Counted from the first letter of the stretch, positions 8,001-24,016 are shown. The stretch is 40,920 nt of DNA from Candidatus Eiseniibacteriota bacterium (GCA_020052115.1 JAGVPR010000103.1:1-40920), one strand, 5' to 3'. Notes: generated by a model not told the origin, from the sequence alone. Numbers and translations: made by a program.

Positions 8001-11000
8001 AGTACACACCCTCCGGCAGGCCCGTCGTGTTCCACACCACGTTCGCCGTCACGTCGGTCGGGTCGCCGGCATCGTGGGTCGGCTGAACGATGCCGAGATC
8101 CTGCCAGCCGCCGCCGCCGACCTGCGCCGCGATCTGAACACCCAGCGCCGCCAGATTCTGGCCGAAGTCGCCGTTGATGTCGAACACGGCGCCACCGGTC
8201 TGGAGAGCGGCGTTCGTGTAGTCCAGAACGGCCGCGCCGAGGCTGGTGGTGATCACCGAGTACACGGTGACGTTCGCACCCTGCAGTGCCGGCAGGACCA
8301 CACCGAGTCCGTCGCCCTGAGTCGGCTCATCGCCGACGAGGATGAAGAACTTCTGCGCGCCCGGCCGGAACGTGTAGTGCTGAAGGCTCTCGACGAGGGC
8401 CTCGAGACCATGCTCGGCTCCCGAGCGTCCCGTGCCGACAGCCTGAACCATCGTCTGGAAGACCGACGTGCTCGACGTGAACTGGCCCGTCCCGACCAGC
8501 GGCGTGCCCGTCGAGCCGTCCGTATTGATGATGCCGCTCGGGTCACCGAACCAGGCGACGGCCAGCTGGACGTCCTTGCCCGCGAGGGCGTTCGCGAACA
8601 CCTGGGCGTTCGCGGCGACCGCGCTCTGGTAGGAGCCCATGCTGCCCGACCCGTCAATGACCCACACGATGTCGGCCCTGCCGCCGCCGCCCGCGATGTC
8701 GCCCGCGAGAACCTGGAACTGCAGCTTGTTGACCCAGGTCTCGGCGGAAGCCGGGATGCAGGGCTCGTCGTCGTCGGCAGAGGCGTGGATCTTGACCGCC
8801 GTGCCGAGCGTGACGTCCGTGATCGTCCCGAAGTCCACAGGGTCCACCGTGGTGTCGTTCGTGTAGTTGACGATGTTCGTAATGGCCACTTCAGGCCCGA
8901 TGTGGTCAACCGTCACGTGCCGGAAGGTGCCGTCGGTGTTCGTGTAATTGAGGATGTCCCTGTTGCCCGCACGGTCATCGTAGGTCACCCGGAGATCGTA
9001 GAGGCAGCTCTCGAGGTCCGAGATATCCCACGTGGTCGAGTAGGTGTTCAGGATGTCGTCCACGAGCGGCGTGGACGGCGTGATCGTGGCATACGTCCAG
9101 AACGGATCGTCGTCAGGATCGGACGCCCTCTTGTACTCGTAGATCGGCCGACCCGTGTCATCCCTGCGCCAGACGTCCGTGTCCGTCGAGACCGTGATGA
9201 GGTCCACGATCCGGCCGTCCGTCGAGAAGGTAAACACGTCGCCCACCTCGAAGTCGTCGTTGGCGATCGGCATGCCGTCGCTGTCAACGCCCGGCGTGAA
9301 CTGCACCCAGACCGTCCCTTCGATCCACACCTGCGAACCGGTTGTGACACCGGCGCCGTTGTGGCCGTTGGAGGCTGTCCAGTCGAAGGTCGCCGCGCCG
9401 ACGTCGCCCGAACTCGTCATCATGATGCTGTACACGACGAGAGAGTCAGGCACGGTCCCGTGCGGAGCCACCCAGCCGCGGTTACGCGGATCCGGCCCGC
9501 GGTTCGGGATCATCGACTTCTGCTGCACGATATCGAGACTGTCGTTGATCGTGAGCGTCGCCGCCGTGAAGCCGTCCTGCCACGGCAGGATGCACTCACC
9601 GGCTTCCACGTCGCCTTCGACAGGCAACCACGTCGCCGTCGGAGCCGTGTGGTCAACGATCATGATCACGATCGGCGGAGCGCTGTCGCGGTTACCGGCA
9701 TCGTCCTCGGCGATCGCCGCGAACTCGTACCGGCCTTCAGCGAGCGGCGTGGTGTCCCAGTTCCTGAGCACCCATGTGAAGTCGCCCGTGGTGTCCCTGT
9801 CGCCGTCGGCGAGCGTCCACGTCGTGGCGCCCTCCGGCCGGTAGAAGAACTCCACGAACTCCGTGTCATGGTCGCCCTTGAGGATGGTCGCCCAAATCTC
9901 GACCGCCCCGCGGACGTGCTCCTCCTCCGGGAACTCCACTTCACGCTCGTCGCCCACCGCACGCACGAGCTTGGTGATCGTGGCAACCGGCGCGATCGTG
10001 TCCTGCACGTGCAGCTGCAGGCCACGCCCGTCGATCATCGCCTGGACCGCCGTGTCCGTGTTGAGCAGGAGGTCCGAAGACGCCGCCACGACGTCGTATG
10101 TGGCCCCGACCGTCAGCATCGGGGTCATCTGGTTGAGATCCCAGTCGAACGAGTAAGGCCTCGTCTCGTCCGGGTTCACGTCGGTGTCGTCATAGCCAGG
10201 CTGCGCCGACTGCCACGAGCTGGGCACGTTGAGGTCGGTGTGCAGCTTGTACATGAACTCGATGATGTCATCCTCGGTTTCGGTCTCGGTGCGGGCGAAC
10301 GCCGTGAAGACCTGATTGCGTTCGACCGTTCCCTCGAACTCGAAGGCCGGGGTCGAAGGATCGAAGTCCATCGTCGCCATGGGCGCCGTGTTGTCCACGG
10401 TCACGTCGAACAGGACCGGGGAGCAGGCTCCCGACCCCCAGGCGTCCTTCTCGCTGTTGCCATGCACGTCCACCGCGTATGCCCGGACCTGCCAGTGGCC
10501 GTCCGGATAGATCGCGGCGCCGCTGCCGTCAATCGCGAGCGTGTTCCAGTTGATCATCCAGTCTTCGCCGAGGGTGTTGTCCGCTCCAGCAAACACCTCG
10601 TACGACACCGTGTCCGGCGTCGACTCGATGAGGATCCACTCGCCCGTAGGCATGCCGTCTCGATGCGCCTCGAAGTTCACGAGAGCGCGTCCGCCCGGCA
10701 GCATGGACTGGTCGCCGGCCGCCGTGGTCGCGAACAGCGCCACGGATCCGGCCACCCACGTCCCGTTCTCGAGCGTCGTCTCGGTCACATCCTGCGGCAG
10801 AATCTGGCCGCCGGTGGCCGCGACGTCCGTCAGACGGGTGTTGCAGGGCGCCGTGACGTCCTGGACGAGCACCGCATTATTCCGAACCAACATGGACCAG
10901 TTGCCAGCGCTGTCCCGTGCGGTCGCCCGCAGCGCGAACAGACTGTCGGCCCACGCCGTGTTCGTCGGAGTGGTCCACGAGATCTGCCACAGCGTCGGAT

Positions 11001-14000
11001 ACGGATCAACCGGAGCCGTCATCAGTCCGATGGTCGTCCAGTCGGCCTCGTTGATGCTGCTGGCCGGCCGGTACTCCATCCGGGCGCCGAACATGCCGCC
11101 CGACTCCATCGGAAGGCCCTGAAGAGCCTCGAAGTTATCGTCAATGGCCGCACCCAGCGGAGCGACATCGCCGCCCGCCACGTGCAGAGGATCGGTGTTC
11201 ATGTCGGTGCCGCCACCCTCCATCTCGTAGGTGCCGGCGAAGAGATCCTTGATGTAGGGCGAGGCGGGGTCGATCCGGAGCGACTGGCCCGGATCATCGC
11301 TCGAGCTGTTGCCCGCGTAGTCGGTCGCGAGCGGACGGAACTGGTACGCCTTCACGGCGGCAGCTTCCGACGTCGCGCCGTTGTCCCCGCCCTGCATTGC
11401 GAGGAAGAGGTTCGGCAAGCCGTAGTACTCGAGGATCCACTGACCGTTCGCGGCGCTGTCGCCGCCCGGGTCGTCGCCCTGGTAGTCACGATACTCAAAC
11501 GTGCCGATCGTGAGCCACCGCGGAGCCGTTTCGTCCTCGCGCGGATAGCGGTAATCGTCGCGGAACTCGAGCGTCATCATCTCGATGTCCGTGGACGAGT
11601 CGCCGTCATCCTCAGCCTTGAATGTGACCGTCGTCGGCAGAACCGGCACGAACTGCGTCTCCTCCGGAAGATAGTCCGGGATGATCAGCGTCGTGTGGTT
11701 CTCGACGAGCGGCAGGCCGCCCGCCTTGATGAGCACGGCCGCCGGCGGAGTGTGGTCGAACCGCACCGTGATCATCGGCACCGTCTCCGTGCCGTCGATC
11801 ACCCCGTTGCCGTCCGTGTCGCCGCCGATGTTGCCGTCGGCGTCGCGCACGATGCCCCGGAGCTGGTACAGGCCGTCCGTCCACCGGTCCGTGTCCATCG
11901 TCCAGATGAAGAGCTTCCGGTTCGCCGAGACCGGAGTGTCAACCAGCGGAACCGTGGTGACGTCCTCCCATGCGACGCCGTCGCCGGAGATCTGAAGCGT
12001 GCCCGTGACCGCGTCGTACTCATTGAGACCGGTCGCCATCGCCCAGACCATTGCCTGCCCGGTGAACACCATCAACGGATCATCCGGCCAGTAGGTCTTG
12101 CCGTTGGTCATGTTGGTCAACTGCCAGAAGTGCGCCACCGGGCCGTCCATGTCGTTGAGGATGACGAGGCTCGTCCTCCCCTGCTCGCCGAGGTTGCCCA
12201 CGGCGTCCACGGCCAAGGCCCGGACTTCCACGTACGCGTCGCCCGAGCGGCCGAGGTCGTCGAAGATGACCTGACGGATCGACTCGGTGTTCAGCGTCGC
12301 GGTGTAGTAGTGCTCCCCGTCCTCGACCGTCTCATCGTCGAGGTCCGGGGTCTCGAACTGCACGCCCATGATCGGCGTGAAGTAGTCGTCGTCCTCGTTG
12401 ACCTGAGTGACGTCAATGTCATGCCAGCTGCTGTCCGCCGGCGACGGCGACCACTGGAAGACCACGGCCACCGGCTTCTCGGCCAAAGTGTACTGACCGA
12501 AGAAGGTGACCGGATCCCCGATGCGGACCACCGCTCCGTTGACCGGCTCCGTCGGGCCGCCGTTGATGGAGGCGAGCTTCACCTCCGCCAGCGCCGGCAT
12601 ACCGTCGATCGTGAGGTCGGTAAGGTACTCATCCGGCGTGTAGCTGACGTTGAAGCCGTCATCGAACACCACCGCGCGGATCTGGAACACCGACTGAGCC
12701 TCGTCGGCCTCGTCAATGATCCCGTCGTTGTCGTTGTCAACCTGGTCGCCTTCGGTGGACTCGTCAACGACCAAGTCTCGATCGTTGTCGAGATGGTCGT
12801 CCACGGAACCCGGCGTCGGCGTGGTCCACGTCACGAACCAACCGCTGCTGACCGGATCGGGGTCCTGGCCCACGATGGTCGCCCAGCGCCACGACTGTCC
12901 GTCGTAGTACTGGAAAAGGACCTTCGCCGGGTCAACGATGTTGACCCCGCCCGGCTCATCCACCAGGTACGTCTGCAGCCCGACGAGCCACGCCGCCGGA
13001 GCCGAAGTGATCGGCTCGAGCGTGTTGCTCGGCGTGAACGGGTTGTTCATGACGTTGACGGCGTAGGTCTGCGTGATCGGCGTGCGATCAATCACCGTCC
13101 GCTTGCCGACCGTGCTCGCCGAGCCGTTGCCGTCCTCACCCGAGAACTCCCACCGGTAGACGCCGTCCGGAAGCGTGGAGATGTCCACGTTCGTCCAGTA
13201 ATCAACGTTCGCCGGAAGGATGATCCGGGAATCGCCGAGGTTGAAGTGCCACGGCGTCGGATCGCCGAGTGTCGGAGCGACGTAGCCGACCGGATTCGTG
13301 TCGTTGCGAGGATCGTCAACCGGATTCTCGGTGCCGTTCCCGTCGATGTCGAAGTTGTCGCCGATCGTGTCCACGAGGAACTGGTACCTGATATTGCTGC
13401 CCTCGCTGACCTCACCCACGACCACCGTCCACACATTCGCGGACTGCGTCATCGGGTAGAGCTCGTTGAGCAGGTCCTGCACCCCGTCCGCATCACGATC
13501 GAAGAACAGCGTCACGTTCTCGAAGTCGCCCGGCGTGACCAGGTGATACCAGTCGGCCTCGAAGAACTTGAAGGTGATCGGCATGTAGCCGTGCTCGGTG
13601 ATGTCCTCCGCCAGCGGCGTCATCGTCTGCTCGGCCACCACGGCGCCGGTCGTCTCATTGATGAGGCGCGCGATCACCGAGGACGGAACGAGCGGATCGG
13701 CCGGAGCGTCGTCGTCCACGAGCAACAGATCCACCTCGTCGCCGGAGAGCTTCGTCACCGGCGGGAGGCTAGAGAGTTCGTTGATCGAGTTGCCGAGCTT
13801 CGCCGTAATCACCTCGTAGAAGGCCGGATCATCCACGTCCTGGTGCCCGAGGCCGCCGACATGGAAGTTCGGCGAATCGGTGTCCAGGACCGTGATGATG
13901 GCCCACTCGGCCGTCGGCGGCTCCTTGTTCGTGAGCGGCGACTGCGTCTCGGCGCGGGCCATGATGGACCATACGCCGTTGTTCGTGCCGTCGCGCGCCG

Positions 14001-17000
14001 TCTGCCAGTCCACCGTGTACGGATCGGCCTCGTCGCCGATCGCGATCAGCGTCCACGAGGACGTGTGGTAATCAACCATCACCGCCGCGGCCGGATCGGA
14101 CGCGAAGATGATCTGGTCGGTGCCGTAGTCAATCGCGAAGTCGGTGACCGCCGGACTCGGATCGGCCGCGAGGTCCGCGAACGTCCGGTACGTGCCGGCC
14201 GTGCCGCCGATGTCAACCCGCACGTCCGTGCCGTTCAGGTTGTCGCCGTCCGGATCCGTGGTGTTCTCGAGAAGGTCCGCCACCCAGAAGCCGGCGTACG
14301 TCCCCTGCGTCGTGAACGCCGGAGTGACCGGCTCGTCCAGAACCACGCTCGCGCGATAGAAGCGAACGAGGTCGAACGCGTCGTCCACCGGGTTGCTCGC
14401 CAGGTCAGCAAAGATCGTCGCGATCGCGCCCTCGTTGATGGTCGCGTCGAGCGGATCGGTGACGGTCGCTGCCATGTGCGTGATCATCAGCCAGCCGCCC
14501 TTCGTCTCGTCGATCACCGAGCGGTTGCCCGGCGAATCGGTCGCGACGATGGCGAACTCGTACGGGCCGTTCAGGCCGCTGACGTCCCAATCGAAGATGT
14601 ACGGATACGTCGTATCGGACGCCGCACGCGTCCATGCCATCCACTGGTCGCCGACGGCTCCCGGCTGAGGCAGCAGGTCGTAGTCGGCGAGCCCGTTGGC
14701 GTCGAGATCCTGCTCCCGCGGCCGGAACCACAGGCTGACGTCCACGACGCTACCCTGCTCGTCGAGAACGCCGTGGTCGGCTGCGGTGGCGAAGATGCTC
14801 AGCGTATTGGCCAGAGTCTGCGTGCCGGTCGGGGCGAGGATGTCGCCGTCCGGCTCCGAGACGGTGATCAGGGTCGTGTTCGGAGCGACGTTGTCGGTCA
14901 CATGGACCACGATCTGGGTCATAGCCGCCAGATCGTCGCCGCCTTCGCACTCCTGCTCTGCCGTCGCGCGCAGGTAGACGAGCCTGTCGTTCTCCAGCTC
15001 GCCAAGCGTGTTCTTCGTGAGCCAGACGAAGCGCCACGGAGAGCTGCGCTCCGGGGCCCCGTCAATCGTGGCTTCGTTCGGATCCGCGTTCACGCCGTCC
15101 TTCATGAACGGAAGGAGCGGCAGGCCGCGGTCCTGATCGTTCTCGGTCACGACGGTGGAGATCAGGTAGGCGGGCACCGTCCAGCCGATCGCCGTCCGGC
15201 GCGTGTCGCCCACTTCGACCACCGTCAGGTCCGTATTGCCGGCGCCCTTCGTGTAGACTCCGTCGCTCCCGTCGAACATCTTCAGGAGCCCGGTCGGGGC
15301 GTCGGTGAAGAAGTCTTCGTCGTTGTTGATGCCGTCAATCTGGTTCCAGTTGACACCGTCGAACGACCACTCGAGGAACACCGCGTCGGTGCCGGCCTCG
15401 TCGTTCGTATCAATCAGGACCTCCATCACGGTGTTGCCGTTGTTCTCCGAGATGACAGTCCCGTCCGCCGGCATCAGGAAGGACGGAGCCGGCGCCGTGT
15501 TGTCGATGAAGATGTGGATGCGCTGGCCCGGATCGCTGCGGTCGGCGTCGGAGTTGCCCAGAGTATCCAGGGCGATCGCCTCCACCGTCACGTAGCCGTC
15601 CGGCAGCCCGTTCGTATCCCACGGCCACACGTAGTCGGCCCATGCCGTCGTGTTCGTGCTGCCCGGCGAGTCCGCATCCTCATCCGCACCGATCTCCGTC
15701 CAGAAACCGCCGACGACCGTGCCTGCGATGTCGCTCAGGACCGGCGCGTAGCTGCTGGAAGCGAGTTCGTAGAGGATCCCGCCGGTGGTCAGCGTCACGG
15801 TGTCGTACGCATACACGTCACCGGCGTACTCGCCGTTATTGGCCGCCGCGTCGGCCGCCGCGTTCAGCTCGCAGATCGCGAAGACCTTCGCGTTGGTCGC
15901 ATCGACGATAGCCACCATGGCCGCCTCTTCGGCCGGCTCATGGTTCGCCATGAAGTCGAGGTCCGCCGCCGTCCCGATCTCCGGCGTCGTGTCGGTGATC
16001 AGGATCAGGATGCGCTCAGCGCCCGGCCGCCAGTTGATCCCCATGCCCGCGCCCGCAGCGTTCTGAAGCACATCGTACGTCGGGACTTCGGTCTCGTTCG
16101 GCGTCAAGAGGTTGAGCGCCGTCGAGAACGCTGCGACGTCGGCCGTGAGGTTCTGCCTCAAGACCGGCACCGACTCGACGTCCACGAGCCCGAGACGGAA
16201 GTCCACGTTCGTGGCCGAAAGCTCGTCCGCGAAGCCCTGGACCGCCGCCTGCACGCTCAGAATCGGATCCTGCATCGAGCTCGAAGAGTCGATCAAGAAC
16301 ACGATGTCGGCGACCGACGGACCGGCTTCCTCACCGCGGATGTAGCGGTAGAGGACCCGGGTCGAGCCGACGTCGTCGGCCGGGAGGCCGTAGACCACCG
16401 AATGGAGGTCCACGATGCCGCATACCGTGGAGGAATCGGCCGGCGAACCGTGCGGCGAGAAGTAAGCGTTCAAGCCGCTCCGGTCAACCGTCACCGTCAC
16501 GATCGTCGGATTCGGATCGAAGTTCCCCTCGATGTCGTACGCCACCGCGCGGAGGTCGTACTCGCCTTCGGGGAACAGCGCCGGATCCGTCGTATCCCAC
16601 GTCACGACGACCGGGTACGTGAAGTCGGCGACGTTGCCCGACCCGTCAATCGTCCCTGTCACCGTGGCGATCGGGACCCATGTCACGTGGTCGCTCGTGT
16701 ACTCGAAAACGATCTTCTCGATGTCGTTCTCGCAAGCGGTCGTATCACCGTCATCCACCGCGAGGACGCCGCCCGGCAGAAGGTCATCCAGCCTGCCGTT
16801 CGAGTTCAGATCTTCCGAGTACGTCGTGAATGAGCCGTCCTGGTTGAGGTCCCAAGCGATCTCGTCGCCCGGCGCCGCGAGGCTGTCCACCACGCCGTCA
16901 CCGTTGAGATCGCAACCCATATACCGCTCGGCGTCGTTCTCCGTCACCGAGTCGATGATGTGGTTCTCGTTCACATCTTCGTGCTGGACCCACAGCTCGA

Positions 17001-20000
17001 TCGCGTTGTAGGCCGGGACGCGCACACCGTACTTGAAGTACTCGGTGCCGCTGTCCTCGAACCAGCTCTTCGCGTACACCCGCGTGATCACGGCGTGCGG
17101 CATCGTGCCGTCCACCGCCACCTCGTGCAGCTCGGCCAGGTCGGCCGGGCTGTCGTTACCCATGATCACCTCTTCCTCGTTACCGATCTCGATACCGAGA
17201 GTCGGGTCCGTAGGATTCGGATCCGGGTTCGGACGGAAGATGTACGGCTGCCAGGTCTCGGTCGTGATGTTGTACCACTCGAGCCGGTCGGCAGCGCGGG
17301 CGACGAAGTAGTAGTCGTCCTGCGAGTCGGCCGGGCTGTTCGTCACGAAATCAGGCGTCCAGCTGATGTGCTCCTCGAGCGAGTGGATGCGCCCGGTCGC
17401 GTGCGTCGCGTCGGTGATCAGGTTGACGAAATCAGGATCGCTGTTCTTCGCGTAGAGCAGCTCGACCCACTGGACGTCCGTGTCCACGCTGGTCGCGCCG
17501 GCGTGATAGACCTCGTCGTCGTAGATCGTGCTGTCGTTCGGAATCAGCGTGCCTTCCGTGGTCGCCAGCTTGAACTCGGCCCCCGGCGCCGTGTTGTCCA
17601 GCAGGAAGATCGTCGGCGCCGCGTAGGTCTCGACGACGTTCTCGGCCTGGTCATAGGCCACCGCCTTCACCCAGATCCCGTCCTTGTCGTCAATCGGATT
17701 GCCCGACAGGCGAAGCTGCGTGAGGTACGTGTCCCACTGCCAGGTCCAAGTCGTCGCCGGAGCCGGCTTGTGCACGACGAAGTTGAAGTTGTCGCGCACG
17801 AAGAACATCCCGGTCCGGTCGAGGCCGTCGGCGTAGTCAATGCCGTCCACGCCGTCCTCGTCGTCGTCCATGGAGGTCGTGTAGGTGTTGTCCGACGGCG
17901 TCGGGTCCGGCTCGCCGTTGACCGTGTCGCCATCGAAGTCAACGCCGAAGCCCTCACCGAGGACCCCGTCGTTGTCCAGGTCGGTGCCGGGCGACTCGAA
18001 TTCGAAGTCGTCCACGTAGCCGTCCTGGTCGTTGTCCACGAAGTCGGCGTCGTAGGCGGCGATCGCCTGGCCGACCTGGGCGTCCATTTCATCAACCCCG
18101 ACCTCGCCGGCGGACGGACGTCCGTTGCCGTCGATGTCGAAGGCGATGACCCAGTCGCTGTCGTCGTCGAGGCCGTTGAAGCCGGCCGCGCCGCCGTCAC
18201 CGGCTGCGTCTCCCGCCGGGTCGTAGTTCAGGTCGCTCCAGTCCGCGAGCGGCGGCACCGAGCCCGGCACCGTGAAGTCCGCGTACTGCATCCGGATGAA
18301 GAGGACGTCGTTGTCCGACGGCGTATAGATGTCCAGCTCCGTCAGACGGCGACCCTCGAGAATGTCGTTGAGCTCCCGCCCCTCGCGATCCCTCGCCGCA
18401 CCCTTAGCGGGCTGGGCCGGGATGTAGGGGCTCGAGATCTCGAACTCGTTGTCGCCGAAGAGCTGATTCGGCGGGCTGTCCGAGTGGACGATGCTGACGC
18501 CGTCGCTCATCGTGATCGAGCCGTCGCCGTCGGAATCGAAGAACCCGTACAGCCGGATGTCCGAGATCTTGGTGACGGACGGGGCGTTGTTGTCAATGTG
18601 GATCAAGCCCGCGCCCGGCGCCGACGCGTTGTTGATCGGCGCGTCGGACGGCCCCGTGTTCAGCGACGCGAAGATCATCCCGTCCACCGGGATCGTCGCG
18701 TCGAAGTTGTTGCCCGAGAGAATCTGCTGCGGCTCCGCCGCGACGTTGATCGTGACGAACAGGTTCGTCTGGCTGTCGACGTCGCTGTCCTTCTTGGCCG
18801 CCGGCAGCGCGGAGTTCACTCCGTTGCCGAGCGCCGTCTCATCAATCACGTCGAGGATGTCGCCGTCGCCGTTGTAGTCAACGCCCGCGGCCGGTTCACT
18901 GAGGCCGGCCGTCAGCGTCCCGCTGTGGTTCCGGTCCTCGGTCAGAGCCGGAATCGGCGTCGCGGGCTCGAGCCGCCAGGTGCGGTTGTCACCCGGCGCC
19001 TTGGGAGCGACCAGCGTCGCCTGGCCCCAGTTCGTGTCCACATCCGGGTCGAAGATGCCGTTGCTGTCGGCGTCCACCCAGATGAACACGCCCGAGATGT
19101 CCGTCGGCTCCTGGGCCTGGTACGGGTTCATGACCGTGAACGACGTCAACATGTCGTCGAACGTGTCCACGACCCCGTCGGCGACCGGCGGCACACCTTC
19201 AGGCGTATCGGTGTAGATATCCTCCTCAACGCCCGAGGTCCCGTCGTAGTTGCCGTCGGTGTCCGCATCCACCCAGCCGGCGAGGATGTTGTCGGCGGCG
19301 ATCGGCGGATCCGAATTCGGCACCGTGCCGAAGAACGAGATCGCATGGCCCGGGTCGTAGGACTCGGCGCCCTGGAAGAGGACCACGTCCGCGGCGGCCG
19401 TGTAGTAGCCGTCTCCGTCGAGATCAATGATGATCTCGTCGTTCTCGGCGTAGTCGTAGCCGTTCACCGGCGAGTCCGGATCGCTCTCGACCCGCTCGTT
19501 CCAGAACTTGTAGTCCGCGTCGAACGCGAAGAGCGGCGCACCCAGGACCGTCGTCTTGGTCAACACGTCCTTGCGGATCGTGTCCGGACGGGTCGTGAAG
19601 GTGCCTCCGCCGTCAACGTCGCGGATGATGTCCTCGGCGAGGTTGTCGAACGTCCCGTTCGCCGGGTTGTTATCCACGAACATCTCGAGATCGAAGTCCG
19701 TGATCGCCCCGACGAAGCTCGGGAAGGCGACGACTTCGCCGACGTTCCACGCCTCATTGACGTTGAGGTCGGCCACAACCGCCTCGCCCCACTGGTACGC
19801 CCCGTCACGCGGCGCGATGTCCACGTAGGAAGCCGCCGGGATCGGACCGGCGTTGTCGAGGTCGAGGTTGTGAGCGAGGCCGGCAGCGAGCACCGCCTCG
19901 CCGATGTCGGCGCGCAGATCGGCGTCCGCATCGTTGATGACGGCTTCACCGTAGTCGTAGTTCCCGTTGCCGCCGCCGCCGCCGATTCCGCCGTCGTCGA

Positions 20001-23000
20001 AGTGGCAAGTGCCGTTGGTGAACGCCTGGAGGTTCTCGCCGTCCGGCACCACGTGCGCCCCGTTGTAAAGCAACGCGACGACGTCTTCCTGATCGCGGAA
20101 GACTCCCGGATACGGCTGGTCGCCGGTCTCATCCACCCAGAAGGCGTTCGGGGCGTCGAGCATCTCGTTGAAATTCACGTCCTCCGTCACCGTGTCGTTC
20201 ACGTCGCCGTCACGGTTGAGGTCCACGGCCACGTCCGGATCGAGGATGTCGCCGTCCAAGTTGAGGTCCACCAGGAGGACGGTCTCGTCCAGCGTGTTCT
20301 CGACCAGGCCCGCGTCGAGAACGCCGTTCGCGACGAGGTCCTCGCTGAACGGGGTGCCCAGGGCGCCCGGCAGAATGGGCCCGTCAACCAGGGTGAAGTC
20401 GCCCCAGTTGCGGTCAACGCGCAGGTCGTTCAACTGAACGACGGGCCGGCCGCCGATGAAGTTGAAGCCGCCGCCGCGGAAGTAGACCACGTCGCCGGGG
20501 CTGTACACGCCCGCGGTGGCGCCGCCCGCCTCGTCGCGGATGGCCCACTCATCAACGCCAGCCGAGAAAGCGCTCGCCAACGTCAATGCGCCGCCGGAAT
20601 CCGCGGCGTTCACGAGAACGTTCGAGCCCTCGCGGTAGGCCGTCTCGCGGGTGTCGCCCGGCGAGATGTTCGTATCGAGGTCATTGTCGGCGTAGATCGG
20701 CTCGAGGTTCACGACCCCCGTCGCCAGGTTCGCGCTGTAGTCCCAGTTACCGTCGTTGTCCTCGTCGAACCAGATCGGGGCATCAACGGCGGGCTGGAAG
20801 GCCGTCAGCGGAACCGGCTGAGGATCCGGCATGGCGAACGCGGCGTTCAGCTCCGGATCGCCCGCGCCGACGATGCTGCCCGGCGGGAAGTACTGATTCG
20901 CCGGCAGCGGCGCGCCTTCGAATACGTTGCAACGCTGGATGCCGGACTCGACGTTGGCCCCCAGACCCGAGGCCCGGTAGTAGATCGGTTCGCCCGGGCT
21001 CCAGGCCGTGCTGCCGTCCACGTCGTAGTACTTGAAGTCCGACAGATCAACGGTCTTGGCACGGGCGTCGTCGCTCGTGTCATCCGCCTGGTCCAGGAAC
21101 ACCGGCGATCCGTCCGACATGAAATCCACGCGGACGTCGCCGGCGTTGACCGTCGCGTCCGAGGAGACGTAGCTCGCGTCAATGTTCAGCACCCACGCGC
21201 CGCCCGTCCCGTTGTCCACGCGGAAGTTCGCGAAGAACGAGATCGGGTTCAGCGAGTCACCGAGGTCGTGCTCCAGCGCGCCGACGTTACCGTTCTCGTA
21301 CGTCACCGCGTTGAACACGCCGTCATTGTTCCGATCCCAGAAGATCGGCTCGCCGCTGTTGTAGAAGCCGTTGCCGTTGACATCCACGAAGTAGATGTCG
21401 TTCATGCCCTGGTGATCGCTCTGGAAGTTGTAGACGTTGTCGCCGCCGTTCGTGCTGTTGTCGGCGTTTCCGTCGTGGACCACCCGGACGATGTCGTCAT
21501 CCGAGCTGAAGCCGCCGGTGCCGAGGAAGAACTCGTCATCGCTGCCGGCGCCGTCGTTGTCGAAGCGGACCAGCGTGCCTGCCCCGGACGGCCTGATGAA
21601 GACCTCGCCGACGTCGAGGATCGAGTCGTTGTCCGCATCATTGAAGAACGGGTAAGTCGGGAGAAGGGTCGGGGGCCCGCCGCTCAGATCAACGGCCTGC
21701 TCCAGGGTCGAGAAATCGTTCAGCGACCCGGCCCCGCCGCTCCGCACGGCGGCCTCGGTTGCGTCGAGGGTGGCGTTGACGTCCACCGTCTCGTTGACGA
21801 TGGTCTCGCCGTCCTGCCAGAGCCCGTCGCCGTTCAGGTCAATGTAGCCGAAGGCGAGCGGGAACTCGGTCAGCGCCTGCCCCTCGGTCGCGTTCGGGCC
21901 TTCGTCAACCAGGACGATGTCGGCCGTGGCCGAATAGGTCATCGAGTTGTCCCAGTCGTCGAAGATCTCGTCGCCGCGAGCGGCGTCGGTCTGGTTGCCC
22001 TGGGTCTCGTCGTCGTCCCCGTCGAATCCGGCCACGCCGCTGTCGGCGTAACGCGTGCGGTGAACGACGGCGTTCACGTCGGTGAACGGCGTCGCGAGCG
22101 GAGAGAGCGGGGCGCCCGCGAAGGCATTCACGCCGTCGAAACCGGTCGAGACCGGCGTGTCCGCCGTCTCGGAGAAGACGCCCGTCGCAATCGGCACCCA
22201 GTTCGGGGCCGAGTACACCATCCCGCCGCCGTCAATGACGACCCACTCGTCGCCCGTGTACGCGGGCGGGTTGTAAACGATCGGGTCGTAGTCGAACGCG
22301 TTGTCGCCGTCCGAATCAACCCAGATCAGAGCGTAACCCGCCGAGTAGGACCAGCTAGCCGTGAAGGCAGTGCCCGTCGTGCCCGGGTCCGGTGCCGCGC
22401 CGACGAGAACCGGCTCGCTGTTGAAGACGTTGTTGTTGTTCGAATCCGTGACGGCCGCTTCGCCGAAGTCATACGTGCCGTTGACAACGACGTTGTCACG
22501 GAACTTGACCGGCGTATTCAGAAGCGAGCCGTTCGGAAGGCCAGCCATACCCAGAAGCGGGACGCCAAGGAGAACCGTCTCGCCCAGGTCGAACTGGTTG
22601 TTGACGGTGACGTTGTCACGCCAGATCGCCTCGCCGTTCTCGAAGGTGTCGTCGTGATCATCGTTCTCGAAGCGCGCGTCCGCCGGGAAGGCCGTAAGGG
22701 CGCTCTCATCGACCGGGAAGCCGAAGATAACAGGCTCCGCGTCGAACTGGGCGTTGCCCTGCGTGTCATCCCACACGACGTCGTCGGCCGGCTTGAACGT
22801 CCCGTCGCCGTTGACGTCAGCCCAGACCTCGTCCGCGGTGCTTCCGCCGAAGGTGTTGACCTCCGCGGTCCCCGCGAATGCGGCCTTCTGCACCTCGGTC
22901 AGGCCCTCCGGGAAGATGATCCCTTCCTTCTCGTAGGTCCCGGCCGGGGCCGTGCCGTCAACGTCGAAGAAGATGATCTCATTCGCGTTGTAATCGCCCG

Positions 23001-23574
23001 GGTCCCGGACGTTGCGGAAATAGGCACGGGCGTTGCCGGCGGTGGCGTGTCCCAGGGCCGTCATCCAGGCGGTGATCAAGTAGCCGGGAGTGCCCTCAGG
23101 CGGCGCCGTGCCGTCGGGAGAGAAGGTCAGCGCCTCGCCCGAGTCGAACTCACCGTTGGAGTTCGCGTCCACCCAGATGTCCTCGCCCGGATCCAGCTCG
23201 TTGTTCGCGCCGCCCGGCATGCCCGGGGCGTTCGTGAACATGGCGAGGTCGGGGAGCGCGACCCCCGTCTGGCCGGCCTCCATCGTCTCGACGTTCAGGA
23301 AGCCAGCGAGTCCCTTATCGGGATCGAACGGCGTGATCGGGTCCCCGATAGCGGAGGCCTTCGCGCCGTCGAACTCGATCCCGTCCTCGACTGTGTTGTC
23401 CGGGAGCTGCACGTCCAGGGTCAGGACGTTCTGCGTACCCGGTCCCACAGAGATCTCAGGGACGCCATAGTTGTCGACGTCGCTGGCCAGGAACGCCACG
23501 ACCGCCGAGCTTGCGAGAGCTAGCGCGGCGATCGTCACGATCAGCACCAGCGCCCTCTTGCCGTTCGAATTCAT
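5053..23574 (-). CDS. giant secreted multidomain adhesin-like protein (6,173 aa): N-terminal Ca-loop-like repeat region, Ig-like module array, two VWA domains, T9SS/FlgD-Ig-type C-terminal sorting domain
   Basis: Single open frame 5053..23928 (-). The start is set at ATG 23574: AAGGAGGA lies 7 nt upstream and a signal/anchor peptide follows (MNSNGKRALVLIVTIAALALASSAVVAFLA). The 118 codons upstream use AT-ending codons atypical for this genome. Domain evidence is given in the sub-features and findings. Confidence 0.9.
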   Translation of the reverse strand: MNSNGKRALVLIVTIAALALASSAVVAFLASDVDNYGVPEISVGPGTQNVLTLDVQLPDNTVEDGIEFDGAKASAIGDPITPFDPDKGLAGFLNVETMEAGQTGVALPDLAMFTNAPGMPGGANNELDPGEDIWVDANSNGEFDSGEALTFSPDGTAPPEGTPGYLITAWMTALGHATAGNARAYFRNVRDPGDYNANEIIFFDVDGTAPAGTYEKEGIIFPEGLTEVQKAAFAGTAEVNTFGGSTADEVWADVNGDGTFKPADDVVWDDTQGNAQFDAEPVIFGFPVDESALTAFPADARFENDDHDDTFENGEAIWRDNVTVNNQFDLGETVLLGVPLLGMAGLPNGSLLNTPVKFRDNVVVNGTYDFGEAAVTDSNNNNVFNSEPVLVGAAPDPGTTGTAFTASWSYSAGYALIWVDSDGDNAFDYDPIVYNPPAYTGDEWVVIDGGGMVYSAPNWVPIATGVFSETADTPVSTGFDGVNAFAGAPLSPLATPFTDVNAVVHRTRYADSGVAGFDGDDDETQGNQTDAARGDEIFDDWDNSMTYSATADIVLVDEGPNATEGQALTEFPLAFGYIDLNGDGLWQDGETIVNETVDVNATLDATEAAVRSGGAGSLNDFSTLEQAVDLSGGPPTLLPTYPFFNDADNDSILDVGEVFIRPSGAGTLVRFDNDGAGSDDEFFLGTGGFSSDDDIVRVVHDGNADNSTNGGDNVYNFQSDHQGMNDIYFVDVNGNGFYNSGEPIFWDRNNDGVFNAVTYENGNVGALEHDLGDSLNPISFFANFRVDNGTGGAWVLNIDASYVSSDATVNAGDVRVDFMSDGSPVFLDQADDTSDDARAKTVDLSDFKYYDVDGSTAWSPGEPIYYRASGLGANVESGIQRCNVFEGAPLPANQYFPPGSIVGAGDPELNAAFAMPDPQPVPLTAFQPAVDAPIWFDEDNDGNWDYSANLATGVVNLEPIYADNDLDTNISPGDTRETAYREGSNVLVNAADSGGALTLASAFSAGVDEWAIRDEAGGATAGVYSPGDVVYFRGGGFNFIGGRPVVQLNDLRVDRNWGDFTLVDGPILPGALGTPFSEDLVANGVLDAGLVENTLDETVLLVDLNLDGDILDPDVAVDLNRDGDVNDTVTEDVNFNEMLDAPNAFWVDETGDQPYPGVFRDQEDVVALLYNGAHVVPDGENLQAFTNGTCHFDDGGIGGGGGNGNYDYGEAVINDADADLRADIGEAVLAAGLAHNLDLDNAGPIPAASYVDIAPRDGAYQWGEAVVADLNVNEAWNVGEVVAFPSFVGAITDFDLEMFVDNNPANGTFDNLAEDIIRDVDGGGTFTTRPDTIRKDVLTKTTVLGAPLFAFDADYKFWNERVESDPDSPVNGYDYAENDEIIIDLDGDGYYTAAADVVLFQGAESYDPGHAISFFGTVPNSDPPIAADNILAGWVDADTDGNYDGTSGVEEDIYTDTPEGVPPVADGVVDTFDDMLTSFTVMNPYQAQEPTDISGVFIWVDADSNGIFDPDVDTNWGQATLVAPKAPGDNRTWRLEPATPIPALTEDRNHSGTLTAGLSEPAAGVDYNGDGDILDVIDETALGNGVNSALPAAKKDSDVDSQTNLFVTINVAAEPQQILSGNNFDATIPVDGMIFASLNTGPSDAPINNASAPGAGLIHIDNNAPSVTKISDIRLYGFFDSDGDGSITMSDGVSIVHSDSPPNQLFGDNEFEISSPYIPAQPAKGAARDREGRELNDILEGRRLTELDIYTPSDNDVLFIRMQYADFTVPGSVPPLADWSDLNYDPAGDAAGDGGAAGFNGLDDDSDWVIAFDIDGNGRPSAGEVGVDEMDAQVGQAIAAYDADFVDNDQDGYVDDFEFESPGTDLDNDGVLGEGFGVDFDGDTVNGEPDPTPSDNTYTTSMDDDEDGVDGIDYADGLDRTGMFFVRDNFNFVVHKPAPATTWTWQWDTYLTQLRLSGNPIDDKDGIWVKAVAYDQAENVVETYAAPTIFLLDNTAPGAEFKLATTEGTLIPNDSTIYDDEVYHAGATSVDTDVQWVELLYAKNSDPDFVNLITDATHATGRIHSLEEHISWTPDFVTNSPADSQDDYYFVARAADRLEWYNITTETWQPYIFRPNPDPNPTDPTLGIEIGNEEEVIMGNDSPADLAELHEVAVDGTMPHAVITRVYAKSWFEDSGTEYFKYGVRVPAYNAIELWVQHEDVNENHIIDSVTENDAERYMGCDLNGDGVVDSLAAPGDEIAWDLNQDGSFTTYSEDLNSNGRLDDLLPGGVLAVDDGDTTACENDIEKIVFEYTSDHVTWVPIATVTGTIDGSGNVADFTYPVVVTWDTTDPALFPEGEYDLRAVAYDIEGNFDPNPTIVTVTVDRSGLNAYFSPHGSPADSSTVCGIVDLHSVVYGLPADDVGSTRVLYRYIRGEEAGPSVADIVFLIDSSSSMQDPILSVQAAVQGFADELSATNVDFRLGLVDVESVPVLRQNLTADVAAFSTALNLLTPNETEVPTYDVLQNAAGAGMGINWRPGAERILILITDTTPEIGTAADLDFMANHEPAEEAAMVAIVDATNAKVFAICELNAAADAAANNGEYAGDVYAYDTVTLTTGGILYELASSSYAPVLSDIAGTVVGGFWTEIGADEDADSPGSTNTTAWADYVWPWDTNGLPDGYVTVEAIALDTLGNSDADRSDPGQRIHIFIDNTAPAPSFLMPADGTVISENNGNTVMEVLIDTNDEAGTDAVFLEWSFDGVNWNQIDGINNDEDFFTDAPTGLLKMFDGSDGVYTKGAGNTDLTVVEVGDTRRTAIGWTVPAYLISTVVTENDQDRGLPLLPFMKDGVNADPNEATIDGAPERSSPWRFVWLTKNTLGELENDRLVYLRATAEQECEGGDDLAAMTQIVVHVTDNVAPNTTLITVSEPDGDILAPTGTQTLANTLSIFATAADHGVLDEQGSVVDVSLWFRPREQDLDANGLADYDLLPQPGAVGDQWMAWTRAASDTTYPYIFDWDVSGLNGPYEFAIVATDSPGNRSVIDETKGGWLMITHMAATVTDPLDATINEGAIATIFADLASNPVDDAFDLVRFYRASVVLDEPVTPAFTTQGTYAGFWVADLLENTTDPDGDNLNGTDVRVDIGGTAGTYRTFADLAADPSPAVTDFAIDYGTDQIIFASDPAAAVMVDYHTSSWTLIAIGDEADPYTVDWQTARDGTNNGVWSIMARAETQSPLTNKEPPTAEWAIITVLDTDSPNFHVGGLGHQDVDDPAFYEVITAKLGNSINELSSLPPVTKLSGDEVDLLLVDDDAPADPLVPSSVIARLINETTGAVVAEQTMTPLAEDITEHGYMPITFKFFEADWYHLVTPGDFENVTLFFDRDADGVQDLLNELYPMTQSANVWTVVVGEVSEGSNIRYQFLVDTIGDNFDIDGNGTENPVDDPRNDTNPVGYVAPTLGDPTPWHFNLGDSRIILPANVDYWTNVDISTLPDGVYRWEFSGEDGNGSASTVGKRTVIDRTPITQTYAVNVMNNPFTPSNTLEPITSAPAAWLVGLQTYLVDEPGGVNIVDPAKVLFQYYDGQSWRWATIVGQDPDPVSSGWFVTWTTPTPGSVDDHLDNDRDLVVDESTEGDQVDNDNDGIIDEADEAQSVFQIRAVVFDDGFNVSYTPDEYLTDLTIDGMPALAEVKLASINGGPTEPVNGAVVRIGDPVTFFGQYTLAEKPVAVVFQWSPSPADSSWHDIDVTQVNEDDDYFTPIMGVQFETPDLDDETVEDGEHYYTATLNTESIRQVIFDDLGRSGDAYVEVRALAVDAVGNLGEQGRTSLVILNDMDGPVAHFWQLTNMTNGKTYWPDDPLMVFTGQAMVWAMATGLNEYDAVTGTLQISGDGVAWEDVTTVPLVDTPVSANRKLFIWTMDTDRWTDGLYQLRGIVRDADGNIGGDTDGNGVIDGTETVPMITVRFDHTPPAAVLIKAGGLPLVENHTTLIIPDYLPEETQFVPVLPTTVTFKAEDDGDSSTDIEMMTLEFRDDYRYPREDETAPRWLTIGTFEYRDYQGDDPGGDSAANGQWILEYYGLPNLFLAMQGGDNGATSEAAAVKAYQFRPLATDYAGNSSSDDPGQSLRIDPASPYIKDLFAGTYEMEGGGTDMNTDPLHVAGGDVAPLGAAIDDNFEALQGLPMESGGMFGARMEYRPASSINEADWTTIGLMTAPVDPYPTLWQISWTTPTNTAWADSLFALRATARDSAGNWSMLVRNNAVLVQDVTAPCNTRLTDVAATGGQILPQDVTETTLENGTWVAGSVALFATTAAGDQSMLPGGRALVNFEAHRDGMPTGEWILIESTPDTVSYEVFAGADNTLGEDWMINWNTLAIDGSGAAIYPDGHWQVRAYAVDVHGNSEKDAWGSGACSPVLFDVTVDNTAPMATMDFDPSTPAFEFEGTVERNQVFTAFARTETETEDDIIEFMYKLHTDLNVPSSWQSAQPGYDDTDVNPDETRPYSFDWDLNQMTPMLTVGATYDVVAASSDLLLNTDTAVQAMIDGRGLQLHVQDTIAPVATITKLVRAVGDEREVEFPEEEHVRGAVEIWATILKGDHDTEFVEFFYRPEGATTWTLADGDRDTTGDFTWVLRNWDTTPLAEGRYEFAAIAEDDAGNRDSAPPIVIMIVDHTAPTATWLPVEGDVEAGECILPWQDGFTAATLTINDSLDIVQQKSMIPNRGPDPRNRGWVAPHGTVPDSLVVYSIMMTSSGDVGAATFDWTASNGHNGAGVTTGSQVWIEGTVWVQFTPGVDSDGMPIANDDFEVGDVFTFSTDGRIVDLITVSTDTDVWRRDDTGRPIYEYKRASDPDDDPFWTYATITPSTPLVDDILNTYSTTWDISDLESCLYDLRVTYDDRAGNRDILNYTNTDGTFRHVTVDHIGPEVAITNIVNYTNDTTVDPVDFGTITDVTLGTAVKIHASADDDEPCIPASAETWVNKLQFQVLAGDIAGGGGRADIVWVIDGSGSMGSYQSAVAANAQVFANALAGKDVQLAVAWFGDPSGIINTDGSTGTPLVGTGQFTSSTSVFQTMVQAVGTGRSGAEHGLEALVESLQHYTFRPGAQKFFILVGDEPTQGDGLGVVLPALQGANVTVYSVITTSLGAAVLDYTNAALQTGGAVFDINGDFGQNLAALGVQIAAQVGGGGWQDLGIVQPTHDAGDPTDVTANVVWNTTGLPEGVYYLRVLAYDTACNMAISKIVQVNVIDKTPPIARIAGFDPDVIPHGDEPNTESTVYALTYSDDEITEVQFQYDIVNATWPAAGTDPDGLGWINIGIGSEVIADQFPKDNLWMAKFNLSAFDASVVERMRIRALAKDSDGNRDDVNAPVLVADLVMNPDQSKKLVAVLDFNRITSVDLSAPSQGNVVLKVATADPSEMPKAIAVSEDLDGNTTEQIVDFTKMVDSDVTWTGVLNLSGIANCGEMNISVTALAERANDILSPATPDTVDIEMQETLIASYQVTDALGTNGVVSIDGLSVYIPSGCGVAGCLLLAPTEAPTVSYDQGLYVTRFGNVYDIEWTSGGGAFDLGYNALVTMSYTDEELEALGLQGNEQLIMPRWLDQSGNDYDDEYWSAVAVTHVSVDTLNNLVTFRAASLDAEIFGDSDEDVGHIWSLFVPTANAPVYVYNFHPWSNGFTDRDPKILAYLNDYSGEGIDDEEIEVWIDNRIVAASGTGYVLGNGDFDVEQVNNDGTMYELTYKHSDRSVDYLAAGQHTLNIRFRTYETDTWVDLDPATPFASFGVDRKAPTVAFRGGFVSDPLLRNIAGYIGPTSFLTNPHTMLQAQAFDGEAGIHVREEQTQDPISTYWDEGLKYDLWLVDWEDDQNDVDEIEERVLLHQGTADELVPYLSPSLEEYSPSDTLLVSMPIVGGGAIDDRDVLEVTLYSVKEIEQNSDGWGFGCDQLDTLWVGSEPVLLCDGLFFDGESQEMHIYLQGWRDEVGNAGSPYVEQRFIVDRSAPTVQLLAPKTGACVSPVDNVVLTFRVADIGAGVDATSLRVALQGPEGEVTVAPPTYNQGTLTVTVAATAADPLSFGTYSGTVSGVDRLGNRFEVPFDFMVCTDNLEVFAPKVYPNPFNPNSAEGEGTAHFTFTLGRQADVSLEVYDFAGDKVVTLASRITHAAGPVDMLWAGETDDGGDLANGVYIARLTVTDGTRTQNVNLKVVIWRD
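5056..5352 (-). other. C-terminal sorting domain of the giant protein (T9SS type-A / FlgD-Ig-like)
   Basis: KVYPNPFNPNSAEGEGTAHFTFTLGRQADVSLEVYDFAGDKVVTLASRITHAAGPVDMLWAGETDDGGDLANGVYIARLTVTDGTRTQNVNLKVVIWRD. The blocks PNPFNP, VSL.vYD..G..V..L, W.G.D..G..v.nGvY and a terminal K.v..r match this domain type. The S8 peptidase C-terminus in this window carries the same blocks. Confidence 0.75.
8107..8680 (-). other. VWA domain 2 of the giant protein
   Basis: ADIVWVIDGSGSMGSYQSAVAANAQVFANAL...QKFFILVGDEPTQ...VTVYSVI. The MIDAS DxSxS motif (DGSGS) is encoded at 8641-8655. Gly4 linkers flank the domain (IAGGGGRAD ... QVGGGGWQD). Confidence 0.75.
15712..16317 (-). other. VWA domain 1 of the giant protein
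   Basis: ADIVFLIDSSSSMQDPILSVQAAVQGFADEL...ERILILITDTTPE...AKVFAICE. The MIDAS DxSxS motif (DSSSS) is encoded at 16276-16290. Confidence 0.75.
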
Positions 23575-24016
23575 TCTCGGTTCCTCCTTGGTGGAATGAG
23601 AATTTGAAACCGGACGACGTCTCAAAAAGTTTATGAGTGACCTCCACAGACCAGGATTACCGCCTGCCTCACTTCCGTACGGCTCCACTTTGCGCCTCCT
23701 CTTCCTCGACCGGTCGCCCGCTTCGTGGGTCGCGGTGTGGGGTTCCGTCTCCCGGACCGACCAGCCTTCAGGGATACACACCGTTTCACCGATAGCCTGT
23801 GGGTCACTCGCGTTCAGCGATGCATTGACTTTGTGGCCACCGAGCGTTGCCCTTGAGCCCTCCTTGTCTTCAGCGCCCAACGACGATCGCCCGACCGGTG
23901 CCGCTCCCCTCGCAAGGGGAGACCGCATCGGGCGGGCCCATCCATATGTGCGCCCTGTTACTTGGGACGAATGAACGCCCCAACATCACCTCCGCGACGG
24001 GCTACTCCAAACGGTC

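Follow-up and report, generated by a model that had tools for sequence, protein, structure and literature searches.

A degenerate array of a putative calcium-loop repeat at the N-terminus of a giant surface protein from Candidatus Eiseniibacteriota

Introduction

Loops of the Dx[DN]xDG type bind Ca2+ near-identically across many unrelated folds (PMC3123361). The subject of this study is a loop repeat in the N-terminal region of a giant surface protein, encoded on the minus strand of 40,920 nucleotides (nt) of DNA from a Candidatus Eiseniibacteriota bacterium (GCA_020052115.1, JAGVPR010000103.1:1-40920). This whole stretch is referred to as the window. The canonical EF-hand (Pfam EF-hand_1/5) has the same ligand register as the repeat (positions 1, 3, 5, 7, 9 and 12, with Gly6 and Glu12) and also forms adjacent loop pairs. 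Glu12 of the classical EF-hand loop is a bidentate ligand. The RTX beta-roll and the Ca2+-rigidified extender domains provide a working analogy, as in these systems many tandem short Ca2+ sites order and stiffen a long extracellular part of a giant, highly acidic adhesin. The SdrD-type B domains (PF17210; PDB 4jdz, 10ps, 3irp) are stalk repeats of extracellular adhesins in which a strand ending in aromatic-x-D is followed directly by a loop of 12 residues, Dx(N/D)x(N/D)GxxDxxE, that helices do not flank. The B-I site of the SdrD B domain has been described as "EF-hand like… right after A strand", is helix-free and holds a structural Ca2+ (PMC13174682). Calcium blades, found in integrin-type beta-propellers of the FG-GAP/VCBS kind, are all-beta repeats 50-60 residues long that contain a Dx[DN]xDG loop and are extracellular in bacteria and archaea. 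They are widespread, and their extra ligand is at +2 only (PMC3123361).

The repeat differs from each of these systems. SdrD-type B domains have one loop per seven-strand sandwich of approximately 110 residues, whereas loops recur every 16 residues here, and position 8 of the loop is Gln or aliphatic in SdrD but aromatic in the repeat. The E and F helices of the EF-hand are missing and strands flank the loops in both structural models (DSSP); position 8 of the EF-hand is I/V/L, and the repeat is probably extracellular and is present in tens of copies. Calcium blades carry one loop per blade, while the repeat has no FG-GAP/VCBS profile similarity and the structure predicted for a relative is not that of a closed propeller. 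The RTX and extender systems use the GGxGxDxUx nonapeptide or immunoglobulin-like (Ig-like) interdomain sites, depend on type I secretion and have no sequence relationship to the repeat.

The repeat and its unit

The repeat is real. It is related to a family of repeats in other organisms, is conserved in an orthologous gene and falls outside the named families. It is probable that the N-terminal 1,400-1,600 residues or so of the giant protein are a degenerate array of this helix-free repeat, the loops of which would bind Ca2+. The protein is encoded by a single minus-strand open reading frame (ORF) running from 23928 to 5053 (6,291 codons; ORF list and translation). Residue numbers are ORF residues, counted from the mechanical ORF start at 23928. 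The region first annotated as repeat-bearing (18595-23480) corresponds to residues 150-1778.

All 14 peptides quoted in the initial annotation, including a plain DxDxDG cluster, were found where it placed them. The aromatic-loop motif lies far above chance and is confined to the N-terminal region, as judged by shuffles and by a control on the rest of the protein. The strict motif [FYW]-x-D-x-[DN]-x-[DN]-G-x-[FYW]-[DN] occurs six times in the region compared to 0.00 in composition-matched shuffles, and is absent from the other 4,513 residues though these are nearly as acidic. The element G-x-[FYW]-[DN]-x-G-E occurs four times (0.03 in shuffles) and GE-x-[IVL] 12 times (1.7 in shuffles). The region consists of 12.6% D, 7.6% N, 11.1% G and 3.2% K+R, with a net charge of -234 over 1,629 residues. 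Its hydrophobic and aromatic content includes 5.3% F, 8.7% V and 4.5% Y+W. The region had been described as extremely acidic and rich in Asn and Gly. Only Asn and Gly are clearly enriched; the remainder of the protein comes close to the same acidity, which is therefore not special to the region.

The elementary module is approximately 16 residues long and comprises a beta-strand of 3-4 residues, ending in an aromatic/aliphatic pair, followed by a 12-residue loop in the EF-hand register. The loop consensus is D1-x-(N/D)3-x-(N/D)5-(G/N)6-x-(W/Y/F)8-(D/N)9-x-G11-(E/D)12, followed by x-(V/I/L), which opens the next strand. Position frequencies were taken over 711 distinct foreign modules, those of other proteins. 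Position 1 was D in 91%, position 3 N/D in 84%, position 5 N/D in 80%, position 6 G/N in 78%, position 8 an aromatic (W/Y/F) in 97%, position 9 D in 57%, position 11 G in 81%, position 12 E/D in 95% and position 14 V/I/L in 91%. The two residues preceding position 1 are hydrophobic or aromatic. The regular relatives have a unit of approximately 50 residues, made of two modules and a Pro/Gly-containing return segment of approximately 18 residues, in which loop A and loop B start 16 residues apart. Many second loops and linkers are decayed or expanded in the window protein.

The unit originally proposed therefore had to be redrawn: its motif stands, but the true unit is the 16-residue strand-plus-loop module, usually doubled, and mostly the better loop of each pair had been listed. 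The count of 15-20 copies rose to approximately 25-28 loop positions, formed by 10 double-loop units and about seven single loops. The 10 double-loop units were obtained by iteration from a foreign profile, and the same procedure found none in 25 shuffled controls. The further single loops were placed with a seed hidden Markov model (HMM). Spacing is irregular, as had been noted, but is 16-17 residues inside a unit and approximately 40-210 residues between units rather than 40-120 throughout. The conserved G-E pair had been thought to fit no known consensus. It corresponds to positions 11-12 of the EF-hand loop, the last ligand of which is canonically Glu12, and the sequence aromatic-x-D-x-N-x-N-G-x-x-D-x-G-E is common to the SdrD-type B-domain site in the same register. 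What is genuinely unusual about the loop is its aromatic position 8. The best window loops fit EF-hand ligands 1, 3, 5, 9 and 12 and Gly6. Lanthanide-specific (lanmodulin-like) loops were rejected, as Pro2 is missing and Asn predominates at positions 3 and 5.

BLASTP found no internal similarity within the giant protein. Tandem Repeats Finder detected no DNA tandem array matching the protein repeats and only two trivial short arrays, so recent duplication at the DNA level was rejected. Together these two results indicate that the repeats are old, degenerate and visible at the protein level.

Relatives of the repeat

A giant protein from a Brocadiaceae metagenome-assembled genome (locus L001) was found by a tblastn genome scan, with 25% identity over 340 residues. 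Its copies are much cleaner than those of the window, being regular double-loop units of approximately 55-60 residues (LFFxDxNxNGxWDxGEDiWaDxNxNGxYNxGxDxxiYxG…WTT…GIQG). An exhaustive HMMER search with 1,200 residues of the region against 1.84 billion representatives gave only 10 matches at E<=1e-3. Eight of these are built of 6-19 tandem units of approximately 50 residues with the consensus IKFVDSNGNGVWDPGETVVYDSNNNGLYDSGEPVIAGTAPALGTSLKSDP. A follow-up search from the best match gave 77 proteins, and the named ones among them are "dockerin type I domain-containing protein" from Candidatus Bathyarchaeia/Bathyarchaeota, with one binned as Dormibacteraeota.

Profiles made from relatives recognised the window region. 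A profile of foreign units only, taken mostly from Bathyarchaeia dockerin proteins, scored 94 bits on residues 150-1778 compared to at most 7.3 bits for 200 shuffles, and gave nine domains of at least 5 bits (shuffle mean 0.005). A foreign position-specific matrix gave six ungapped window matches of at least 8 bits (0.00 expected) and scored 26.4 bits at residue 965. A profile of six L001 units matched the giant protein almost only in the N-terminal region, the one other match (residue 5771) scoring -1.9 bits. The repeat does define a family, a point that a profile search had been expected to decide. A homolog search with the whole N-terminal region gave no match at E<=1e-3, its word index probably being swamped by composition, and one with a 44-unit alignment gave 94 candidates and no match, the word index being unsuited to short queries. 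A metagenome scan with the N-terminal region also gave no match. No description of the repeat was found in literature searches, the limited coverage of which makes this weak evidence of absence.

The Bathyarchaeia dockerin proteins (P0001, P0002, P0005, P0006, P0025-P0054) and L001 share both the loop consensus and the double-loop unit with the window. The tandem units of the regular relatives are followed by a BNR-like region and a dockerin, or by PKD domains. The window array is by comparison degenerate, interrupted and about three times more spread out, and is combined with an Ig/VWA stalk and a C-terminal domain of the type IX secretion system (T9SS) type. A second arrangement was found in P0076 and P0077, which have Por_Secre_tail and FlgD_ig, and in P0074, which has a TonB-dependent-receptor plug. 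These proteins of approximately 2,000 residues contain hundreds of residues of back-to-back single-loop modules of 15-16 residues (FTDxNGNGxWDxxE…), for which Pfam has no model. Residues 963-1151 of the window protein (20476-21036) align with each copy of a super-repeat of approximately 225 residues in the archaeal protein P0004 (BLASTP E=2.4e-10). P0004 has 787 residues, with three calcium loops in each copy and possibly a PGF-CTERM anchor, and represents a third architectural context for the loop. The suggestion that the family might be restricted to proteins with a T9SS C-terminal domain was refuted. Among the relatives are proteins with dockerins, PKD/CARDB domains or a possible PGF-CTERM at the C-terminus, or with a TonB plug at the N-terminus.

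The giant ORF of L001 starts at nt 6905 and runs off the locus. It encodes FG-GAP/VCBS repeats and PPC domains in addition to the repeat, and dozens of Ig-like repeats of approximately 95 residues, each with its own FYRDxNGNGTLE loop.

The family to which the repeat belongs is rare, has no name so far and is found in both Archaea and Bacteria. A wider proposal is put forward tentatively, at slightly less than even confidence: the strand-plus-aromatic-EF-loop module may be an undescribed helix-free tandem calcium-binding beta-repeat fold common to surface proteins of Bathyarchaeia, Planctomycetota and bacteria with T9SS-type sorting domains. It would occur in at least three arrangements (single-loop tandems of 15-16 residues, double-loop units of approximately 50 residues, and loops in super-repeats of approximately 200 residues), and the giant protein would carry a decayed mosaic of it at its distal end.

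Conservation in an orthologous gene

A metagenome scan with the adjacent 921 residues identified contig Ga0214473_10014295 (L002). Its gene order is the same as that of the window (2-hydroxyacid dehydrogenase, purA, ychF, giant gene). In its N-terminal region, L002 shares 52% identity with window residues 44-887 and 67% with residues 1306-1939. Nineteen of the 20 window motifs are at homologous positions in L002, with D1 and the aromatics kept or conservatively swapped. The twentieth lies in a segment of approximately 420 residues (~888-1305; window ~20014-21267, minus strand) that L002 is missing. This large indel suggests that recombination between repeats has added or removed units, and it shows that the number of units varies, much as it does in other repeat adhesins.

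Predicted structure

The relative P0005 was modelled with AF2 (431 residues, eight units) from an alignment of 31 orthologous sequences. The mean predicted local distance difference test score (pLDDT) was 83.5 and 372 of the 431 residues were at or above 70. The model is all-beta, with about four strands of 3-4 residues per unit (KFVD / VVY / (L/V)IA / SLK) and no helix. A Foldseek search against 350,542 PDB chains gave nothing at E<=1e-3 (best E 0.12, TM <=0.15). The insignificant list was mostly propellers, including the PVL lectin 4up4, and neither 4jdz nor 3irp was retrieved. Nothing was found at E<=1e-3 among viral structures. The model and the Foldseek results together indicate that the family is predicted to form neither a closed propeller nor a Cna-B sandwich, and that no solved counterpart of the predicted structure was detected at the scale of the PDB. 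An all-beta, helix-free structure is predicted for the relatives only.

Residues 236-575 of the window protein were modelled with an alignment to 24 archaeal segments and two other window segments, the units of which were put in register by MAFFT. This 340-residue run, within the 300-500 residues suggested in the initial annotation, gave two confident patches (residues ~246-265, pLDDT 74-78, and ~406-455, pLDDT 71-93), where a strand-loop-strand-loop-strand pattern was predicted, but did not demonstrate a repeating fold. The idea of a distinct Ca2+-dependent repeat fold is favored by a confident family model with no solved match and is not borne out for the window's own region.

Several observations weigh against reading the region as a folded calcium-loop array. 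The mean pLDDT of the window model was 54.2, with 178 of 340 residues (52%) below 50. The predicted template modelling score of P0005 was 0.40, leaving the packing between units uncertain, although a low value is also expected for an elongated array. Identity between the window and L002 is 0.57 both inside and outside the motif segments, so the motif segments are under no extra constraint overall. Many window loops are off-consensus, with one-residue insertions or with G6 or E12 lost. A pattern of the PROSITE PS00018 type gave no matches in its strict form with an aliphatic position 8. With position 8 relaxed to aromatics it gave three matches in the window, six in L002, 14 in P0005 and 27 in P0076, all 27 of the last being EF-type loops with an aromatic at position 8. 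As only three window loops pass the relaxed pattern, a good fraction may no longer bind Ca2+.

These points raise the alternative of a largely disordered polyanionic tether that sequesters Ca2+ or folds on binding it, in which only scattered loops order and there is no repeating fold. The long inter-loop stretches of low pLDDT, the irregular spacing, the high negative charge and Asn/Gly content, the lack of internal BLASTP similarity and the large indel tolerated between orthologs all agree with such a tether. It is nevertheless unlikely. The alignment behind the window model was shallow and heterologous, and a low pLDDT would be expected from it whatever the true state. The segments between motifs show the same 57% identity as the motifs themselves, and this constraint on the linkers argues against a mere disordered tether. 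These segments are also rich in hydrophobic and aromatic residues, unlike typical disordered acidic tethers. The regular relatives model confidently as folded, and residues 963-1151 align lengthwise with a repeated archaeal domain.

Comparison with named families

According to the initial annotation, the repeat does not fit the consensus of FG-GAP/VCBS, TSP3 or dockerin. Pfam and NCBIfam, with hhalign for FG-GAP and dockerin, bore this out, and each of the three families had a positive control. Pfam and NCBIfam gave no family at E<=1 in the window region or in the repeat region of L001, and nothing except SdrD_B fragments in the repeats of the regular relatives. The same searches found FG-GAP_3 (5.3e-16), FG-GAP and PPC elsewhere in the L001 protein, TSP_3 (weakly) in the neighboring OmpA-family protein and Dockerin_1 at the C-termini of relatives only. 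Pfam EF-hand models had no match in the window. Sub-threshold matches were found in P0009, to EF-hand_1 in the repeat region and to EF-hand_5 in the C-terminal dockerin. The hhalign comparison of the unit profile with the dockerins of the relatives gave a probability of 0.6% over 14 aligned columns. Sequence searches of the PDB with the N-terminal region and with an eight-unit profile gave nothing meaningful, and the unit profile matched no sequence at E<=10.

The nearest known element is that of the SdrD-type B domains. The units could be highly divergent SdrD_B or Cna-B-type beta-sandwiches with an EF-hand-like A-B loop, making the region an ordinary B-repeat stalk. The regular relatives have sub- to near-threshold Pfam SdrD_B matches, P0005 summing to 33.9 bits against a cut-off of 29.7, and hhalign of the unit profile to the SdrD/UafA B domains (PDB 10ps_A, 3irp_X) gave a probability of 39.6% (pairwise E 3e-4) in the loop register. 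The aligned part, however, is 24 columns, corresponding to the first 24 of 108 positions. The Pfam matches in relatives cover profile positions 2-27 (at most ~51) of 112. P0005 has no single significant stretch, and P0002 and P0009 have one or two short significant stretches that are sub-threshold overall. SdrD_B has no match at E<=1 in the window region, and neither the Foldseek search nor the PDB sequence searches recovered these domains. Membership fails on domain length, on loop spacing (every 16 residues and not once per ~110) and, for the model of the relative, on fold. The closest known counterpart is therefore not a domain but a local motif. An origin of the units as B domains is accordingly regarded as improbable.

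Less probable still is that the units are divergent calcium blades in one or more beta-propellers. A unit of 50-60 residues with about four strands does resemble a blade, propellers dominated the insignificant Foldseek list, and calcium blades are common (PMC3123361). The profiles FG-GAP, FG-GAP_3 and VCBS had no match at E<=1 in the window or in the L001 repeat region, even though FG-GAP_3 was readily found elsewhere in L001, and hhalign of the unit profile to the FG-GAP repeats of L001 gave a probability of 0.2% with one aligned column. Unlike calcium blades, the repeat also has paired loops in each unit and a Glu ligand at position 12, and unit number varies from 6 to 19 among relatives. 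The notion that the motif is a by-product of D/N/G-rich composition, with no specific structure or function, can be dismissed: the whole protein is acidic and plain DxDxDG strings also occur 14 times in its remainder, but the strict motif is absent both there and from the shuffles, which refute it, and the foreign-profile score and the positional conservation in L002 point the same way.

The giant gene and its surroundings

The coordinates of the repeat units, the giant gene and the neighboring features are given in Table 1. The first ATG of the ORF is not the likely start of the giant protein. The ATG at 23574 (ORF residue 119) is the likely start because it sits 8 nt downstream of AAGGAGG and because L002 has no Met upstream of the same MNSNGKR. 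The N-terminal sequence MNSNGKRALVLIVTIAALALASSAVVAFLASD resembles a signal peptide, and on this basis is labelled a putative export signal. The 118 codons upstream of the likely start (23575-23928, minus strand) are open and AT-richer than their surroundings. They are conserved in a protein-like manner in L002 (…KRRRKVEP.GSE…LWRSLI…RRRPVSNSHSTKEE.RMNSNGKR), yet L002 has no Met there. This segment is probably a conserved 5' leader or promoter region and not coding sequence.

Downstream of the repeat region Pfam and NCBIfam identified two VWA domains, Big_13/Big_3_3 Ig-like domains and a C-terminal sorting domain. The last is above curated cut-offs for both TIGR04183 (25.4 bits compared to 23) and FlgD_ig (28.1 compared to 27). 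Plain DxDxDGxxD loops are present within the Ig-like/VWA part at residues 1965, 2340, 2373, 3074, 3477, 3527, 3731 and 4037. Their position 8 is mostly aliphatic (two have Ala or Thr) and none is followed by G-E. As Ca2+ sites, these loops and the N-terminal repeat belong to separate classes.

Table 1. Location of repeat units, features of the giant gene and neighboring features in the window
Feature	Position	Strand	Evidence or remark
Repeat-bearing N-terminal region, aa 239-1634	19027..23214	-	Motif statistics, foreign-profile score, unit map
Unit, aa 239-281 (…DPGEDIWVDANSNGEFDSGEAL…)	23086..23214	-	24.5 bits; foreign position-specific matrix 14.7 bits; pLDDT 74-78
Degenerate double-loop unit, aa 303-352 (YFRNVRDPGDYNANEIIFFDVDGTAPAGTYEKEG…)	22873..23022	-	Weak matches; in register with archaeal units by MAFFT; kept in L002
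Double-loop unit, aa 369-413 (WADVNGDGTFKPADDVVWDDTQGNAQFDAEPVIFG)	22690..22824	-	19.8 bits
Double-loop unit, aa 418-464 (RFENDDHDDTFENGEAIWRDNVTVNNQFDLGETVLLG)	22537..22677	-	15.3 bits; best-modelled part of the window, pLDDT 71-93, predicted strand-loop-strand-loop-strand
Double-loop unit, aa 474-520 (VKFRDNVVVNGTYDFGEAAVTDSNNNNVFNSEPVLVGAAPDPG)	22369..22509	-	35.2 bits; 29.2 bits with purely foreign profile
Single loop, aa 533-553 (IWVDSDGDNAFDYDPIVYN)	22270..22332	-	Peptide check, seed HMM; kept in L002
Unit, aa 694-737 (GYIDLNGDGLWQDGETIVNETVDVNATLD…)	21718..21849	-	15.6 bits; foreign matrix 14.0 bits
Double-loop unit, aa 845-877 (IYFVDVNGNGFYNSGEPIFWDRNNDGVFNAVTY)	21298..21396	-	27.1 bits; foreign matrix 29.5 bits
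Three single loops (YYDVDGSTAWSPGEPIYY, IWFDEDNDGNWDY, …GVYSPGDVVYFR) in an arrangement of ~190 aa, aa 965-1151	20476..21036	-	BLASTP to P0004
Plain DxDxDG loop cluster, aa 1220-1245	20194..20271	-	Without position-8 aromatic and without G-E; in segment missing from L002
Three consecutive degenerate double-loop units, aa 1318-1466	19531..19977	-	15.8, 18.0 and 7.2 bits; kept in L002
Three single loops, aa 1497-1517, 1550-1568 and 1614-1634	19027..19440	-	Peptide check, seed HMM; kept in L002
Giant surface protein, coding sequence	5053..23574	-	6,173 aa from likely start ATG at 23574
Shine-Dalgarno-like AAGGAGG	23583..23589	-	Direct sequence reading
Candidate signal peptide or signal anchor (MNSNGKRALVLIVTIAALALASSAVVAFLASD)	23479..23574	-	Basic n-region, then 23-residue hydrophobic stretch
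C-terminal sorting domain (T9SS type A / FlgD Ig-like), aa 6194-6282	5083..5349	-	TIGR04183, FlgD_ig
OmpA-family protein with weak TSP3 repeat	3332..4954	-	OmpA 4.1e-20; TSP_3 2.8e-4, below threshold
Subtilase with CarboxypepD_reg, MAM-like domain and C-terminal FlgD_ig	38365-40701	-	
Flavin mononucleotide (FMN) riboswitch	1470-1596	-	103.5 bits; upstream of ribD (228-1517)
tRNA-Lys(TTT)	25556-25631	-	
tRNA-Leu(TAG)	34942-35026	-	
YchF-type GTPase gene	24432-25472	-	Listed ORF starts at P-loop

The surroundings of the giant gene are chromosomal housekeeping genes (ribD, purA, ychF, lon, clpX, clpP, tig and a leuB-like gene). The giant gene is followed on the same strand, after a gap of 98 nt, by the OmpA-family gene. 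From its position the latter may be a co-transcribed operon partner or encode an outer-membrane anchor. The FlgD_ig of the subtilase shows that the same C-terminal sorting-type domain is present in at least two secreted proteins on the contig. The YchF ortholog in L002 is 40 residues longer, and the true start of the window gene is therefore probably an upstream GTG or TTG. An overlapping plus-strand ORF (24165-25625) matched no family and is probably spurious. ClpP, ClpX, PurA and the leuB-like product (IPMDH) were singletons at 90% identity among approximately 15 billion sequences and the lineage is poorly sampled.

Proposed role and significance

The region is most likely a Ca2+-stabilised distal stalk or adhesive region. 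Each intact loop would bind one Ca2+ through the side chains of positions 1, 3, 5, 9 and 12 and the carbonyl of residue 7, by analogy with loops of the EF-hand and of other Dx[DN]xDG sites. A small beta core may be formed by the flanking strands together with the aromatic at position 8. The protein would be exported by the Sec system and then attached to the surface through its T9SS-type C-terminal domain. The region is placed distally only because the C-terminal sorting domain, if it does anchor the protein, puts the N-terminal region furthest from the cell. Serial Ca2+ sites would make folding and stiffness Ca2+-dependent, leaving the distal segment stiffened and protected from proteases. 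This segment would project from an Ig-like/VWA stalk of approximately 4,400 residues and may itself carry a binding surface.

The biology proposed is unsurprising, as Ca2+-stiffened adhesin stalks are common, and there is no sign of a new mechanism. The loop chemistry belongs to a known motif class, while novelty appears to lie in the predicted fold and in the arrangement, with helix-free loops that recur every 16 residues and carry an aromatic at position 8. Helix-free EF-register loops of this spacing would add another to the known independent uses of the Dx[DN]xDG loop, and the position-8 aromatic makes Tb3+-sensitised luminescence an easy assay.

Giant acidic surface proteins of uncultured microbes have thousands of residues that are mostly unannotated. 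The module would be usable for annotation because it has a clear consensus and register, has relatives in Archaea and Bacteria and is covered by no Pfam or NCBIfam model. The 368 regular units collected are a direct seed for a Pfam-style family. With the module defined, tens of such proteins would become annotatable as Ca2+-dependent surface structures.

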